Assembly: GCF_963921235.1 (NCBI RefSeq)
Contig: NC_086108.1
Location: forward strand, 86,864,001-86,928,000
Length of the DNA stretch: 64,000 nt
Source: Mobula hypostoma
Taxonomy: Eukaryota
Direction of reading: 5' to 3'
The notes beneath the pieces are model-generated. The model made no database searches. It had not been told where the DNA came from and worked only from the letters and a program-made list of their open reading frames with translations. The position numbers were made by a program, and so were the translations under genes. Position 1 is the first letter of the stretch; every line of letters begins with the position of its first letter. This document shows, piece by piece, positions 14,465 through 63,179 of this stretch.

Positions 14465-16250
14465 GAAGTGGAATTGGCATTGGTATATTATTGTCCCATG
14501 TACCAAGGTCAAGATTATGTACTGATCAAATCATTAAAAATTACATTAAGGTAGTACAATCAAGGTAAAACAATATCCGAATGCCGAATATTGTGTAATA
14601 GCTGCCGAGAAAGTGCAGTGTAGGTGGACAATAAGGTGCAAGATCATAACAAAGTAGATTGAGAGGTCAACAGTCCATCAAAAATCTTGTAACAGCAGGG
14701 TGGAAGCTGTCCTTGAACTTGATGATACATGCTTTCAGGCTCTGAAGAAGGGAGAATGTCTGGGATAGGTGGAGTCTGATTATGACAGCTGCTTTACTGA
14801 GGCACTGACAAGGTCCATAGAGGAGAAGCTGGTTTTATTGGTTTCATATGTTGAGCTGTGTCCATAACTCTCTCTTGATTTTGCAGTCATGGGTATGGGT
14901 AAGCCAGTTGCTAAACTAAGTCATGATGCATCTGGATAGGATGTTTTCTATGGTGCTTCAATAAAAATTGGTAAGGGTCAATGAGGGAACATAAATTTCT
15001 TTAGTCTCCTAAGGAAGTAGAGGCATTGTGAGCTTTCTTGGCTATGGTATCTACGACCAGGAAAGGCTATTAGGGATGTTTATTCCAAACAACTTGAAGC
15101 TTTCAACCCTCTCAACCTCAGCATCATTGATTCTGACAGGGGTATGTTCATTTCCCCTTCCTGGAGTCAATGACCAACTCTTTAACTTTGCTGACATTGA
15201 GGGAACAGTTGTTATCATGACACCATGTTACTAAGCTCTGCAACCATGCTCCTGTTCACTGACTCATTGCCATTTTTGATATACCCACATAGTCATGATG
15301 CATAGGAGGTAAAGCATGGGAATGAGGCCTTGTGGAATACCAGTGTTGAGAATAATTATGGGGCGATCCTTATTGATTGCAGTCCGTTGGTCAGGAAATC
15401 AAGGATCCATGTGCAGAGGGAGGCTGTCTCCCAGGTCTCAGAATTTGATAATCAATTTACTTGGAATTAGAGTCTTTGAAAGTGGAGTGGTTGTCAACAA
15501 ACTATAGTATAATGTCACTATTTAGTGACATCAAACAGGTGACGTACACATTTAGGCTGACAACTGAACATAGGCCAGTCTACTGACTCAAAGTGGATGC
15601 TTAGAACCTCCTCTATTTCTTCAGTCCAGCATTGAATGACTTTCTGTATTGGGTCATCCCTTTTTAGCTTCTGTTTGTATGTAGCGCGAAGGAGCACAGC
15701 CTGGTGGTCTGATTTACCGAAGTGTGCATGAGGGTATTTTTGATGCTTGATAGCAGTATTAGTCCTGATGAAGAGTCTCAGCCCAAAGCCTTGACTGTTT
15801 ATTCCTTTCAATGGATGCAGCCTGAACTGCTGAGTTCCACCAGTATTTTGTACCTTGCTCAAGATTTCCAGCATCTGCAGAATCTCTTGTGTTTATAATT
15901 CATTGAGTGCTGGCTTCATTTCCACCTGGGGTAAGATATAGACTGCCATCAGGATTGCTGAAATGACCTCACATGCGAGATAGTTTGGGTGATACTTGAT
16001 TGTTAGATATTCCAAGCTGGGTGTACAGGAATTCCACCAGAACCATCACATCCAAACGCCACGAGATGTTAATTAAAAAGCAGACCTGTCAACCTCTAAC
16101 TATGCCTAAGGTAGCCATTCAGTCCATCTAGTGAATGACAAGCCCCCAGGTTGTATGGCACAGTCAGGTGAAGCAGGTGTAGGTCATGTTTACATGAGAC
16201 ATAGCACACTGCAGTCCCTCATTTCCCTTTGGTAGACTCACCAGCTTTGT
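14465..16250 (-). mobile_element. Decayed, deleted Rex1/Babar-like LINE (EN and RT remnants)
   Basis: HFGKSDHQAVLL.ATYKQKLK in ORF 15518-15874; RT remnant ~14900-15510. Confidence 0.75.
15760..15896 (+). mobile_element. Old Penelope-like terminal repeat starting at a degenerate hammerhead
   Basis: AGTCCTGATGAAGAGTCTCAGCCCAAAGCCTTGACTG...CCAGCATCTGCAGAATCTCTTGTGTTT. Confidence 0.75.
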
Positions 16251-29856: not shown

Positions 29857-31112
29857 CAAGGAATTCTGCAGATGCTGGAAATTCAAGCAACACACATCAA
29901 AGTTGCGGAACACAGCAGGCCAGGCAGCATTTCTAGGAAGAGGTACAGTCGACGTTTAGGGCTGAGACCCTTTGTCAGGATGAACTGAAGGAAGACTTAG
30001 TAACAGATTTGAAAGTGGGAGGGGGAGGGGGAGATCCAAAATGATAGGAGAAGACAGGAGGGGGAGGGATGGAGCCAAGAGCTGGACAGGTGATTGGCAA
30101 AAGGGATATGAGAGGATCATGGGACAGGAGGCCCAGGGAGAAGGAAAAGGGAGGGGGGGGGAAACCCAGAGGATGGGCAAGGGGTATAGTCAGAGGGACA
30201 GAGGGAGAAAAAGGAGAGAGAGAGAAAGAATGTGTGTATATAAATAAATAACGGATGGGGTATGAGGGGGAGGTGGGGCATCAGCGGAAGTTAGAGAAGT
30301 CAATGTTCATACCATCAGGTTGGAGGCTACCCAGACGGAATATAAGGTGTTGTTCCTCCAACATGTGTGTGGCTTCATCTTGTCCACAGATCCCTGAAAG
30401 TTGCCTCACAGGTGGATAGGGTAGTTAAGAAAGCTTATGGGGTGTTAGCTTTCATAAGTCGAGGGATAGAGTTTAAGAGTCGCGATGTAATGATGCAACT
30501 CTATAAAACTCTGGTTAGGCCACACTTGGAGTACTGTGTCCAGTTCTGGTCACCTCACTATAAGAAGGATGTGGAAGCATTGGAAAGGGTACAGAGGAGA
30601 TTTACCAGGATGCTGCCTGGTTTAGAAAGTATGTATTATGATCAGAAATTAAGGGAGCTAGGGCTTTACTCTTTGGAGAGAAGGAGGATGAGAGGAGACA
30701 TGATAGAGGTGTACAAGATAATAAGAGGAATAGATAGAGTGGATAGCCAGTGCCTCTTCCCCAGGGCACCACTGCTCAATACAAGAGGACATGGCTTTAA
30801 GGTAAGGGGTGGGAAGTTCAAGGGGGATATTAGAGGAAGGTTTTTTACTCAGAGAGTGGTTGGTGCGTGGAATGCACTGCCTGAGTCAGTGGTGGAGGCA
30901 GATACACTAGTGAAGTTTAAGAGACTACTAGACAGGTATATGGAGGAATCTAAGGTGGGGGCTTATATGGGAGGCAGGGTTTGAGGGTTGGCACAACATT
31001 GTGGGCCGAACGGCCTGTAATGTGCTGTACTATTCTATGTTCTATGTTCTATGTTTACAGTAGAGCAGGCCGAGGATAGACATACCAGAATGGGAATGGG
31101 TTGTGGAATTAA
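29857..31112 (-). mobile_element. Penelope-like element 3' end, split by a CR1 at ~30381-31054
   Basis: GIY-YIG C-terminal LEEQHLIFRLGSLQPDGMNIDFSNFR; 11-bp TSD AATGCTTCTCA. Confidence 0.88.
30381..31054 (+). mobile_element. Young CR1 3' fragment
   Basis: Open 205-aa ORF; (TTCTATG)n tail. Confidence 0.93.
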
Positions 31113-33397: not shown

Positions 33398-33616
33398 CAA
33401 ACAAGAGGAAATCTGCGGATGCTGGAAATTCAAACAACACACAGGAAAAATGCTGGTGAACGCAGCAGGCCAAGCAGCATCTATGGGAAGAGGTACAGTC
33501 GACGTTTCGGGCTGAGACCAGCATCCTGACGAAGTGTCTCGGCCCAAAACGTCGACTGTACCGCTTCCTATAGATGCTGCCTGGCCTGCTGCGTTCAGCA
33601 GCATTTTTTATGTGTG
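33398..33616. mobile_element. Inverted Penelope terminal-repeat pair inside an older Penelope remnant (~33350-33670)
   Basis: 13-bp TSD TAACTATCTGCTG; the arms invert at the hammerhead. Confidence 0.88.
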
Positions 33617-34579
33617 TAACTATCTGCTGGAGGAACTCAGTGGATCTATTAGCATCTGTGGGAGGGAAGGTCAGGGATTATCTTCATGAATTGTAGAGCA
33701 GGCTCCAAGGACCAAATGGTCTTCTCCTGCTACAAGTTCCTATAAACTTCAGTTAGCTTGGTGACGCTTCTGCAGAATTACCTCCTTGTAGTGTATTCCT
33801 GAATGATCACAGACAGATAAAAACACCAGGTTGTTCATAATATAAGAACTTCAAGTGCCCATCTGTTTAAGGCGTGACATTCAGAAGTGGGACCAAGAAA
33901 AACATAACACTTAAATTTCATTTCTTTTCCTTTCACACCTAAATACCTCCGCAATAGTTACTTAAGCAGAAATGAATAATGCAATCCACACTCAAATATT
34001 CTCCAGGCATCTCCCTCAAATATCCTATCAGCAACTTATTCCGGTAAATAATAGTTATGTTACTGCTCAAATAAAGTCAAAGCAGATGCTGTAATCACTT
34101 GAAATGCACTATAAAATGTAACAATCCATTTTGAAATTCAGCATTGCTTAATGTTCACTTGTACCATGCAAATACACAGGTAAAGCTTGATATATAATGG
34201 GTATAAATGGATGGAAAAATAAAGAACTCTAGAAACAAAGATTTATTCAGCGCTTTGAAAGTAAAGAGATTGTTTTGCCCTCTATTCAGATTGAATTGGA
34301 ATGCCTTCATAGTGGAAAGCAATCCAATGTTCTCATTCAGGTGTTTATTGCATATTACAAAGAAAATGCCTCATTTTTTTAAAATATTAGAATAGAAAGG
34401 ATGTAGTTCTCACAATGCATAACACCCACTTTTGCCATTTGATTCCATTAGGGCTCCTGAGATAGTTCGACTATATCCTGGAGATCACATCAGTTCCCAC
34501 AGTATTAAATTTGCAAGCAGCTCTAAGGTCAAATTTGAAATAGTTTTCCAGATTGTTGCTTAAACTGCTTCATCCTAAA

Positions 34580-41869: not shown

Positions 41870-42423
41870 CCAAAATGTCTACAATGCCTTTAAGTGGAAA
41901 TCCTACAAAAGGTAGTGAATTCAGCCCAGTATATTATGGGTAAAGCCCTCACAACCATTGAGTACATCTACATGAAACACTGTCACAGGAAAGCAGCATC
42001 CATCATCAGAGATCCCCACCACCCAGGTCATGGTCTCTTCTTGCTGCTGCCATCAGGTAGAAGGTATAAGAGCCTCAGGACTCACAACACCAGGTTCAAG
42101 AATAGTTACTACCCCTCAATCATCAGGCTCTTGAATGAAAGGGGTTAACTACATTCACTTGCCCCATCATTGAAATGCTTCCCTAACCAATGATCTCACT
42201 TTAAGGGCTCCTTATCTCATTATCTCATGTTCTCATTATTTATTGCTATTTATTTATAATTGTGTTTGCAGTTTGTTGTCTCCTGCACTCTGTTGATCAT
42301 TCACTGATCATTCTATAGTTACTATTTTATACATTTGCTGAGTATTCCCTCAAGAAAATGAATCTCGGGGTTGTATATGGTGACATAAATGTAATTTGAT
42401 AATAAAACTTACTTTGAACTTTA
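41870..42423 (+). mobile_element. Rex1/Babar-like 3' end inside the Gypsy
   Basis: HHPGHGLFLLLPSGRRYKS; TTTGAACTTT tail. Confidence 0.88.
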
Positions 42424-43283
42424 GAATGTGCAACAGAATTTCCAGTTCACAAATCCTTACCAGCGCTGGGATGAACTTGTCCTTGATGAAGGTTGCCTTA
42501 TGTGGGGAATGAAAGTTGTTGTACCATCCAAGCTGAGAGTTAAATTCTGCAAGAGCTGCATGCCAGTTACATGAAAGCATTGGCTTGAAGCTTTGTCTGG
42601 GGGGCTGGGATAGGTCGAGCAGCTTGCCATGCACTGTTTGCACTGCCAACACATCCAGAAGTTGCCAAGAGCTGCGCCTCTCCATCCCTGGGCATGGCCT
42701 ACATTGCCCTGGCAGAAGATTCATGTGGATTTTGCCGGACCATTCATGGGCATAAATCTCTCAGTAGTACAAAATGGCCAGGAGAGTTCCCAAAAGCGTC
42801 CACTACAGCCTGACACACTGATGTTGAGAAGCCTCTTCGCAGGGACTGGTGTCCTGAAATACCTAGACAGTGTCAATGGACCACAGCTCATTGCGGGATG
42901 GTTTCAGTCATTCCTGACAATTAATAGAATAAGACATATTATAACTGCACCATACCAACCAGCTTCAAATGGCTTTGCAAAAAAAAGGTTTGTTCAGAAT
43001 CCAAAAAAATGCACTGCAAGCAACGTCAGCAGAACACACTACAATGACACTGAATCAGAACCTCGCCAACTTCTTCCTCCCATATCGCAATGCAGCACAC
43101 TCCACAATCAATAACTCACCAGCTATGCTGCTCCTTGGTCAGCCCTTGCCCTCATGCTTACATCTGCTCAAGCTCAATCTCAGGAGAAGTATGCAGGACA
43201 AACAGTTGAGACCAAGGGGGCTCCTCAGGCAAGGAAGTTCAGTGTGTCTTGGAGAGGGGCTAAAGAGGTGATTAAAACTGGGT

Positions 43284-43487
43284 CACACAAACAACAGGAA
43301 TTCTGCAGATGCTGGAAACTCAAGCAACACACATCAAAGTTGCTGATGAACACAGCAGGCCAGGCAGCATCTCTAGGAAGAGGTACAGTCGACGTTTCAG
43401 GCCGAGATCCTTTGTCAGGACTAGATAGTACTAGATAGTACAGGACTGTGGTCCTGATGAAGGGTCTCGGCCTGAAACGTCGACTGT
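43284..43487. mobile_element. Inverted Penelope terminal-repeat pair
   Basis: TSD AT(T/C)AAAACTGGGT at 43271-43283 and 43488-43500. Confidence 0.88.
43451..43486 (+). ncRNA. Minimal type I hammerhead ribozyme motif
   Basis: GTC-CTGATGA-AGGGTCTCGGCCT-GAAAC-GTC-GAC; catalytic core intact. Confidence 0.75.
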
Positions 43488-43869
43488 ATCAAAACTGGGT
43501 ACTTGGAATGAATAAGGATAAAACTAGACCACTAGACACAGTGGAGATTGTGTCTGATGTCATCTGGAGACAACACACTGATCAGTTGAGGACAGCAGAG
43601 CCAAATGTTGGAGAAAAATGGTGTCTGGAGCTGTCAGAATCACTTCATACAGTCCCAGAGCCAACTGCTACAACCACCGCAGAAGAATGCCCAGTATCTA
43701 AAATTGTTTCGCAGCCACAAGTGTCAGCTGCTAAGAAAAGTGAACCCCCCCTTGTCAGGAAAGATGTTATCCCACAAGAGTAAGAAATCCTTCACAGTGA
43801 TCAAATCATTAGGTCTGAATGAGAATATTTTAAATTAACTTTGCAGTAGTTGTCTATATAGTGTAAAAC

Positions 43870-44924: not shown

Positions 44925-45618
44925 CACCCCTCTTTACATCAGTGGCTCAGCATTGGAAACTGCGAATAGTTTCAAACTTCTGGGAGTGAACTTCTCAGAA
45001 AACTGCTCATGCATCTTGCACAATCAAGAAAGCACACGCACCAATGCCTTTACTTTCTGAAGAGGCTAAAGAGAGCTGGACTATGTGCATCAGTACTCAC
45101 TTCTACGGATGCATAGTAGAGAACATCATGAATAGTCAAAACCGCCCAACACAACACTCCCACCAGCCTACTTGCCATCAAGGGTATATCTGCAGAAAAG
45201 TGCTGGATAAGGGCCAGCAGTTTCATAAAAGATCTAACACGGATCTCATGGATATCTGCCCCAGTTCCATCAGGGAGGAGGCTACACAACATTTATGCCA
45301 GGCCCATTAGACTCAAAAACAGTTGCTTTCCTCAAGCAGAAAGTCTAATCAATACTTCCACCTACTAATCTATCCCACCTCCAGTACTTTATCATTGCCT
45401 GTCAGAATCACCTTATGTACAGACAATCCTGTGCCTAGCATCACTTCATGGACATTGAATCAATCCATGATTACAAGCTGTCTTATGTATTTATATTTAT
45501 TGTGTTTCTTTTTATTATAGTTGTGTTTTTTACTGTTTTTTGGCATCATGTCCAGAGTAACAATTATTCAGTTCTGTTTACAGTGGACTACTGTAAATGA
45601 CATTAAACAATCTTGAAT
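44925..45618 (+). mobile_element. Old Rex1/Babar-like 3' part
   Basis: FKLLGV, FYGCIVENI remnants; ATTAAACAATCTTGAAT tail. Confidence 0.75.
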
Positions 45619-45625
45619 TTATCAT

Positions 45626-45734
45626 CGCGAGGAAATCAGCAGATATTGGAAATTCAAGCAACACACAGCAGGCCAGGCAGCATCTATAGGAAGAGGTACA
45701 GTCGACGTTTCAGGCCGAGACCCTTCGTCGGGAC
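45626..45734 (-). mobile_element. Penelope terminal repeat whose boundary is the hammerhead
   Basis: CAGTCGACGTTTCAGGCCGAGACCCTTCGTCGGGAC. Confidence 0.8.
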
Positions 45735-48811: not shown

Positions 48812-49397
48812 AAACATGAGGAATTCTGCAGATGCTGGAAATTCAAGCAACACACATCCAAGTTGCTGGTGAACGCAGCAGGCCAGGCAGCATTTCTCGG
48901 AAGAGGTACAGTTGACGTTTCGGGCCGAGACCCTTCGTCAGGACTAACTGAAAGAAGAGCTAGTAAGAGATTTGAAAGTGGGAGGGGGCGGGGGAGATCC
49001 AAAATGATAGGAGAAGACAGGAGGGGGAGGGATGGAGCCAAGAGCTGGACAGGTGATTGGCAAAAGGGATATGAGAGGATCATGGGACAGGAGGCCCAGG
49101 GAGAAAGAAAAGGGGGAGGGGGGGAAAACCCAGAGGATGGGCAAGGGGTATAGTCAGAGGGACAGAGAGAGAAAAAGGAGAGAGAGAGAGAGAAAGAATG
49201 TGTATATATAAATAAATAACAGATGGGGTACGAGGGGGAGGTGGGGCATTAGCGGAAGTCTGAGAAGTCAATGTTCATGCCATCAGGTTGGATGTTACCC
49301 AGACGGAATATAAGGTATTGTTCCTCCAACCTGAGTGTGGCTTCACCTTTACAGTAGAGGAGGCCGTGGATAGACATGTCAGAATGGGAATGGGATG
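48812..49397 (-). mobile_element. Penelope-like element 3' end
   Basis: RLEEQYLIFRLGNIQPDGMNIDFSDFR; hammerhead at 48909-48945; imperfect TSD TGGATGA(G/T)GT. Confidence 0.88.
48909..48945 (-). ncRNA. Minimal hammerhead ribozyme motif
   Basis: AGTC-CTGACGA-AGGGTCTCGGCCC-GAAAC-GTC-AACTG; one stem I mismatch. Confidence 0.7.
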
Positions 49398-49516
49398 TGG
49401 ATGATGTTTCAGGGTATTTGGAGATACATGATAAAATAGGGCAAAGTCAGCATGGCCTCCTAAGGGAATATCTTCCACACAAATCCACAGGAATTCTTTG
49501 AGGAAAGAACAAACAG

Positions 49517-62720: not shown

Positions 62721-62856
62721 CATATTACTGCATGTATAAACTTTAAATGGCTAGCTAAAAAAAAATCTTTATTATGGATGTGACAATATTGGAATGGTCT
62801 TACTTATCCACCATTCCTGGTTTTCCTGAAAATATAGTGACGATGGACCTTCCAGT

Positions 62857-62987
62857 AACACACATCAAAGTTGCTGGTGAACGCAGCAGGCCAGGCGGCA
62901 TCTCTAGGAAGAGATACAGTCGACGTTTCAGACCGAGACCCTTCGTCAGGACTAACTGAAGGAAGAGCTAGTAAGAGATTTGAAAGT
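62857..62987 (-). mobile_element. Short young Penelope insertion
   Basis: 11-bp TSD GACCTTCCAGT. Confidence 0.88.
62917..62953 (-). ncRNA. Minimal hammerhead ribozyme motif
   Basis: AGTC-CTGACGA-AGGGTCTCGGTCT-GAAAC-GTC-GACT; core and stem I intact. Confidence 0.75.
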
Positions 62988-63179
62988 GACCTTCCAGTGA
63001 TTGTTTTACTTTCAATCCTGAGTGACTCATTAAGTCACTTCACGAAGCACAAAAGAATTTAATTTCCACATACAGGAAAAACTGGGTTATTGGAGTGGCC
63101 AATACCTTTCTTTTACAATTTTTGCAGTGATTTGCTCAGAACTATTCCCCGAATTATTCTCGAACACGATGCTGAAAGG

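Follow-up and report, generated by a model that had tools for sequence, protein, structure and literature searches.

Arms of a head-to-head Neptune-type Penelope-like insertion in Mobula hypostoma end just ahead of a hammerhead ribozyme, probably at the 5' limit of the template RNA

Introduction

Why should a retroelement insertion end, at both of its arms, a few bases ahead of a ribozyme rather than at the place where that ribozyme cuts? The question is raised by positions 43284-43487 of the window, by which we mean the whole 64,000-nucleotide stretch of Mobula hypostoma contig NC_086108.1 analysed here, and it bears both on the route by which Penelope-like elements (PLEs) integrate and on the purpose of their hammerheads. 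Minimal hammerheads have been described in the pseudo-LTRs of the fish PLEs Xena, Poseidon and Neptune, with weak cleavage, in dimers only (PMC4209133; Cervera and de la Pena, 2014). PLE promoters have also been placed in the pseudo-LTR (PMC2377424), and inverted pseudo-LTR insertions are reported together with a mention of solo repeats (PMC8557442; PMC3846280).

Results

Positions 43284-43487 (204 bases) are a single head-to-head fold-back insertion of a Neptune-type PLE. Its parts are listed in Table 1 with element coordinates that run in the element sense from 0 at C3 of the CUGANGA box (CUGA), the predicted cut falling between +27 and +28. The original prediction had the head-to-head structure right and overlooked the 13-bp target duplication around it; its account of the right arm as a ribozyme alone (-3 to +33/+34), facing a second ribozyme across a repetitive filler, was borne out, with TAGATAGTAC present twice at 43422-43441. 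The left arm matches natural long copies at 97%; its hammerhead carries G8>A and a change in stem II in the alignment, and is predicted to be inactive. The filler would be a likely product of templated re-priming during joining, and the 8 bases that it shares with a rare variant of the element's upstream sequence are no more than chance would give and were not used as evidence. The 3' end of the right arm is an unusual internal priming point, ends between +14 and +40 being rare (6 arms). Because ends near +34 are so seldom seen, we do not regard the ribozyme-only arm as a regular product: the second arm was primed unusually at +34, and the two ends coincide. A transcript across both arms is predicted to form one long hairpin (-101 kcal/mol) and the two ribozymes lie on opposite strands, so there is no cis dimer; cleavage as dimers, which had been put forward for these hammerheads, is established for tandem same-strand copies and does not extend to this head-to-head pair. 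The insertion sits in a decayed LTR-retrotransposon pol region (~42400-43800) with integrase-like motifs in several broken frames, which from those motifs we take to be Gypsy-like. Animal non-LTR retrozymes are likewise non-autonomous, hammerhead-bearing derivatives of PLE repeats, but in the accessible part of their description they are head-to-tail tandems (bioRxiv 10.64898/2026.07.22.740005), and a non-LTR retrozyme identity was ruled out for 43284-43487 by its inverted arms.

Table 1. Parts of the insertion and other arms of the family in the window
Feature	Position	Strand	Description	Basis
Target-site duplication, left copy	43271..43283	+	13 bp, one mismatch to right copy, 10 bp exact	sequence
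Left arm, PLE terminal module	43284..43423	sense on minus	-5 through ribozyme to tail end (~+134)	
Filler, 27 nt	43424..43450	.	10-nt unit repeated, then CAGGACT copied from the left arm's own end	
Right arm, minimal type I hammerhead alone	43451..43487	+	-3 to +33/+34	
Target-site duplication, right copy	43488..43500	+		sequence
Second fold-back insertion	33400..33617	.	tail arm ends +9, inner arm -2, 13-bp target duplication	
Single arm from -3	45630..45734	-	internal deletion	
Older-subfamily arm	15759..15894	+	start about -6..-4	
Longer arm through ribozyme to -452	48813..49399	-	stem I G>A	descriptor, alignment
Longer arm to -402	29859..30381	-	core G8>A	alignment
Arm to -39	62844..62988	-	intact minimal hammerhead	

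In the right arm GTC (43451-53) is followed by CTGATGA (43454-60), an extra A, stem II (GGGT-CTCG-GCCT, 43462-73), GAAA, the loopless palindrome ACGT and GACTG (43482-86), with a cut predicted after C43481. Sequence and alignment uphold the motif and coordinates originally given, and the reduction of stem III to a loopless palindromic ACGT is plain in the sequence. Cores had been called intact at 43451, 48909 and 62917; the core boxes are present in all three, but stem I at 48909 is broken by G>A at the core-proximal pair. A strict descriptor passes 43451 and 62917 and fails both 48909 (stem I) and the left arm (G8>A). The right arm and the 62917 copy have the CUGANGA and GAAA boxes, the UH cut site, helix I, and the helix II with an extra 5' base of a minimal type I hammerhead, and their palindromic helix III (ACGT) permits dimers, although in a co-fold of two copies the active dimer was not by itself the lowest-energy form. 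The G10.1-C11.1 position is G-U in the right-arm copy and most matches listed, and G-C in others. Monomers fold at -8 to -13 kcal/mol, no better than shuffles, and an Rfam scan gave no match to a hammerhead family, its miRNA matches being the palindromes. The motif is nevertheless not a chance one, a conclusion that rests on the strict descriptor (37 matches in 1.42 Mb of random genome versus 0 in a Markov control) rather than on a loose pattern that is mildly above shuffles (3 versus a mean of 0.43; 2 of 100 shuffles reach 3). The motifs of PMC4209133 are, like ours, type I, with an extra base before stem II, a palindromic loopless helix III and a helix I of 4-5 bp; they too are mostly single motifs from truncated PLEs, with some pairs on opposite strands. 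The helix II of 4 bp in the present copy differs from theirs, and the accessible text of that paper holds no breakpoint map.

The family was assigned from long natural copies. The longest of them (L091, ~3.1 kb) has a PLE reverse transcriptase (RT) ORF upstream of the terminal repeat and lacks an upstream repeat, and no full-length copy with an upstream repeat was recovered. Its RT frame matches Pfam RVT_1 at E=2e-4 and 21.6 bits, under the curated cut-off, and goes to RVT_1/HTH_animal clusters in Atlas (0.97); a PDB search with the RT frame gave no match. The frame of another copy (L092) has a VIY...LCIG motif and a GIY-YIG-like C-terminus, for which Pfam gave no match and Atlas gave clusters with GIY-YIG on 42-63% of members (0.96). 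Its translation also includes a C-x4-C-x2-C linker that fits the CX2-5CxxC between RT and endonuclease, a Neptune feature common to Nematis also (PMC8557442). Inverted arms, a one-sided tail and target duplication, the fold-back traits of an endonuclease-bearing PLE, are present. Judged from these translations and traits, the family fits the Neptune clade of endonuclease-bearing PLEs as the available text of PMC8557442 describes it.

About ten copies had been predicted in the window, and we count 11 arms of the family that reach the terminal module, 5 of which start between -6 and -2. Boundaries at the 5' edge of the ribozyme, as had been claimed, were found for the copies at 15759, 33524 and 45734, at -6, -2 and -3. 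We note that the sequence adjoining the 45630-45734 arm (45021-45560) resembles, by eye, the 3'-terminal part of a LINE RT fragment and its AT-rich tail. The genome is 3.48 Gb and holds one family 25-mer 60,437 times; 1.42 Mb of random sequence contained 79 young arms and 212 arms in total, which scale to ~190,000 and ~520,000 respectively.

To score the 5' ends of young arms we took 142 random stretches of 10 kb, the window, and a set of loci found with queries wholly downstream of the cut site. Of 90 such loci 85 were kept, 5 being overlaps; another 30 loci were excluded, as the query behind them covers the ribozyme. These sources held 205 young arms, and the analysis used the 180 whose 3' end lies at +60 or further and whose 5' end lies no further 3' than +45; the insertion's own right arm is not one of them. 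The ends are not evenly spread along the element, and, as the original prediction had it, they gather just upstream of CUGANGA and far less at the GUC cut site, where there is a small peak at +28. Among 143 young arms at risk, 39 end at -9..+3, a hazard of 2.44% per nt, against 1.36% at +4..+13, 0.25-0.33% at +14..+45, 0.46% at -22..-10 and 0.12-0.15% at -200..-23. Of the young copies in the sample that extend as far as the hammerhead, about a quarter thus stop just ahead of it. In the random stretches and the window alone (70 arms) the peak is 16-fold over upstream (p=3e-9) and 5.8-fold over downstream (p=2e-4). Further upstream, young arms seldom end at -300..-201 (2/76) and do so more commonly at -500..-301 (30/73), around the end of the ORF.

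Genome-wide pattern counts, which are raw and come from one type of filter that passes part of the true ends, gave 6,625 breaks among 59,194 in -9..-1 (1.24% per nt), 1,537 among ~40,000 in -23..-10 (~0.27%, the denominator being estimated) and 1,687 among 60,437 in +24..+41 (~0.16%, internal deletions included). Junctions were also scored by eye on contig C1. Among 100 matches listed they fell at -1 (7), -2 (13), -3 (23), -4 (27), -5 (13), -6 (2), -7 (6), -8 (6) and -9 (3), and with another filter 100 matches listed fell at -4 (45), -3 (23), -2 (18) and -1 (14). There are two edges, A(-4) and a smaller A(-8), each the A of YAGT, and the counts at -5, -6 and -9 fit chance extension of these edges. 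The peak at -9..+3 is found in single-arm and two-arm insertions and in young and old subfamilies; single arms with a clean target duplication ending at -12..+5 number 9 of 49 arms. Older subfamilies were scored on their own references (older natural copies), as their upstream sequence differs, and with 152 of 155 arms placed they gave 3.0% per nt at -9..+3 versus 0.25% downstream and 0.24-1.0% upstream; their apparent -4 boundary is in part sequence divergence upstream of the conserved module, and the excess persists with the older references. A literature search found no report of a 5'-end hot spot at the front edge of the ribozyme, subscription papers and Fig. S2 of PMC11167929 lying outside its scope.

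The 3' ends of young arms in the random stretches and the window form two clusters, at +128 (30 arms; the references end nearby) and at +91..+98 (28 arms). By analogy, these match the two internal RT starts and the double-strand priming of an anole element, as far as the accessible text of PMC11167929 describes them. Of the 49 fold-backs sampled, 47 carry the tail on one arm, with the opposite arm shorter at that end. At its 5' side the longer arm of these 49 stops within -9..+3 in 20, within -60..-10 in 4, never at -200..-61, beyond -200 in 15 and downstream of +3 in 10. Arms in the peak have a partner that runs past -9 in 1 of 27 cases, against 5 of 9 control arms with a longer partner (Fisher p=0.002); independent stops would be expected to join short arms to long ones often, and 31% of paired arms are long. 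At the level of arms, which are not fully independent of one another, the figure of 1 in 27 gives p=7e-4. Both arms therefore likely share one short template. Among the matches listed, ~8 of ~52 inverted joints have a partner past -9 by eye, which is near the expectation from background truncation. Several fillers among the matches listed duplicate +2..+12 just before -4 or -3, as expected if a cDNA end re-primes on the same template.

Discussion

We propose that the arms of this head-to-head, Neptune-type insertion with its target duplication end at -5 and -3 because their template was an RNA with its 5' end, probably a transcription start, 4-8 bases before the ribozyme core; on the sequence evidence we consider this probable. 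The ribozyme, the family and the inverted form are all known, and the hot spot is likely the one new mechanistic clue, with a cause that we infer. Two steps are observed directly, the arms facing apart inside a target duplication, one with a tail and the other short of it, and the accumulation of 5' ends at -9..+3 with edges at A(-4) and A(-8). Between them, the protein would cut and extend both target strands, with RT starting at two internal sites that bound the tail, as in the related anole element. RT could begin at the terminal-module copy that lies close to the RNA 5' end and run off after ~100-135 bases, whereas a start on the 3' copy would give the long, randomly truncated class. The cDNA ends would then be trimmed, re-primed on nearby microhomologies, leaving fillers, and joined. 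A shared template with a fixed 5' limit accounts for the pairing of arms, the hot spot and the single arms, and because the -4 arms contain the whole cleavage site the template would be mostly uncut by the ribozyme. The YAGT at A(-4) and A(-8) resembles an initiator consensus. Copying of a cap would leave an extra G before the end, and no such excess was seen among the matches listed, where 45 ends at -4 are preceded by A (19), C (14) or G (12). Against a transcription start, the motif reads equally well as a 3' splice site, with a pyrimidine tract and CAG kept across subfamilies, and the edges at -4 and -8 also fit two possible registers of stem I. In D. virilis, furthermore, Penelope has an initiator-type promoter in the pseudo-LTR that drives the downstream copy, as would be the case here, but its start has been mapped 46 nt ahead of a 75-nt intron whose 3' boundary is the 5' edge of the ribozyme, which puts that start well upstream of the ribozyme and away from -4/-8, whereas the start that we propose is 4-8 nt before the core (PMC2377424; PMC4209133, in the parts of both that are accessible).

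A wider scheme, which we advance tentatively, may follow. PLE RT would start at the same stem-loop on either end of the RNA, and starts on the 5' copy would yield a distinct class of 100-135 bases, tens of thousands of them here, that marks the transcription start at base resolution on a natural template that its own ribozyme has left uncut; a single short template would supply the two arms of a fold-back, and at its end RT would re-prime and stutter, somewhat as telomerase does. If true, the genome would preserve, in very many natural copies, the 5' limit of the template. The scheme would account for the lone minimal hammerheads that litter such genomes, would speak against a cleaved or circular RNA being what these short insertions are usually copied from, and makes the precise prediction of RNA 5' ends at -4 and -8. 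Anolis Poseidon PAc (Frangieh et al., 2024; PMC11167929) is the closest parallel: both target strands are cut and extended, two internal RT starts bound the tail, and insertion does not need ribozyme cleavage, ribozyme mutants inserting normally. It differs in belonging to the Poseidon clade and in being known from in vitro work and from 3' ends; a pile of 5' ends at the front of the ribozyme is not in the accessible parts of its text, and the coverage in its Fig. S2 may show one. The inverted pseudo-LTR insertions of PMC8557442 and PMC3846280 share with ours the head-to-head arms, the target duplication and a one-sided tail of 30-40 bp, and are explained there, in the text available, by self-priming on an antisense template or by endonuclease resolution. 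In our family, however, the arms of long pairs end hundreds of bases from each other, whereas those of short pairs stop at a common, fixed limit, and the hot spot is therefore not a general small-loop fold-back.

The main rival to a transcription start, and a milder form of the original prediction, is 5' trimming of a longer transcript, with the nuclease halted by the ribozyme module in its folded or protein-bound state; the fold would then set the boundary by way of RNA trimming and not by stopping RT. This would explain the shared short template and the absent cap-derived G alike, and the A(-4) and A(-8) edges match two possible registers in which stem I could pair with GACUG. The RNA alone folds weakly, however, and the ends lie inside stem I, whereas in known nuclease-resistant RNAs a few unpaired bases remain ahead of the fold. 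A protected complex is plausible in that the anole ribozyme is active only with the element protein (PMC11167929, accessible text), and on balance we think trimming unlikely but to be taken seriously.

Another possibility, and the one favoured by the original prediction, is that RT is stalled, or induced to switch template, by the ribozyme fold or by two RNAs joined as a hammerhead dimer. The hazard is raised at +4..+13 too, and many inverted joints use the self-complementarity of the ribozyme, including some -4/+28 joints through stem I (L082). RT moves 3' to 5' on RNA, however, and a fold should therefore stop it at the 3' face, stem I being unwound before -4; no excess is seen at that face, +14..+45 being near background. 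Nor do the folding energies of monomers, which are no better than those of shuffles, the scarcity of long partners for short arms, the single arms with clean target duplications that end at the same place, or the frequency of exact -4/+28 joints (~1-2 per 100 matches listed) sit well with a stall. The fold as stop or switch point is probably wrong, and we rate it as decidedly improbable.

The boundary could also be a 3' splice site, the template being a spliced RNA or a lariat intermediate. Some copies have a TACTAAC that resembles a branch point, a pyrimidine tract with CAG or TAG precedes the ribozyme, its AG is kept across subfamilies, and the D. virilis intron ends at helix I (PMC4209133, accessible text). 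Yet a splice junction is not an RNA end, no upstream exon is shared among 200 junctions (matches listed, in two partly overlapping lists), and ends are flat across the would-be branch point, which rejects a stop at a lariat; we regard this reading as very unlikely. Joints in contigs of runs guessed to be RNA from related organisms gave no readable splice signal, and contigs cannot show starts. The pyrimidine tract and CAG are found upstream of the ribozyme in all subfamilies (e.g. 48944-48975, minus), and TACTAAC in some young copies. By analogy with D. virilis this conserved tract may be a true splice acceptor, and could exonise ribozymes into host transcripts.

That cleavage by the hammerhead defines the ends of the template, as the cleavage and circular templates proposed in PMC4209133 would suggest in the text available, is refuted as the main cause and hardly credible as such, though cleavage may play a minor role. 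There is a local peak at +28 (15-16 of 100 matches listed, ~3 times the local mean), but raw ends there are ~270 against ~2,300 at -4, roughly a ninth, most of the +28 joints fall at GAC/GACT microhomology shared with the partner arm or with sequence elsewhere in the element, and most short arms are uncut, those ending at -4 keeping the site. Short head-to-tail duplications occur inside the terminal module (e.g. C1:30583412 and C1:61736946), one of them restarting exactly at +28, and could stem from template jumping or from RNA that was cleaved and then ligated again.

An artefact, whether alignment edges at a conserved module (BLAST ends of old subfamilies at -4 against the young reference are often divergence) or selection against copies with a splice-acceptor-like tract, has a negligible chance and is refuted for the young family by inspection of junctions, since in young copies the sequence immediately upstream is an inverted partner, a target duplication or an unrelated flank, and selection would raise every position downstream of the tract to the same degree instead of producing a 13-nt peak. 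As a separate observation, some near-perfect palindromic fold-backs are centred at ~-17..-23 on the self-complementary GAAGAG/CTCTTC (e.g. C1:113520806-113520919 and C1:120101867-120101979).
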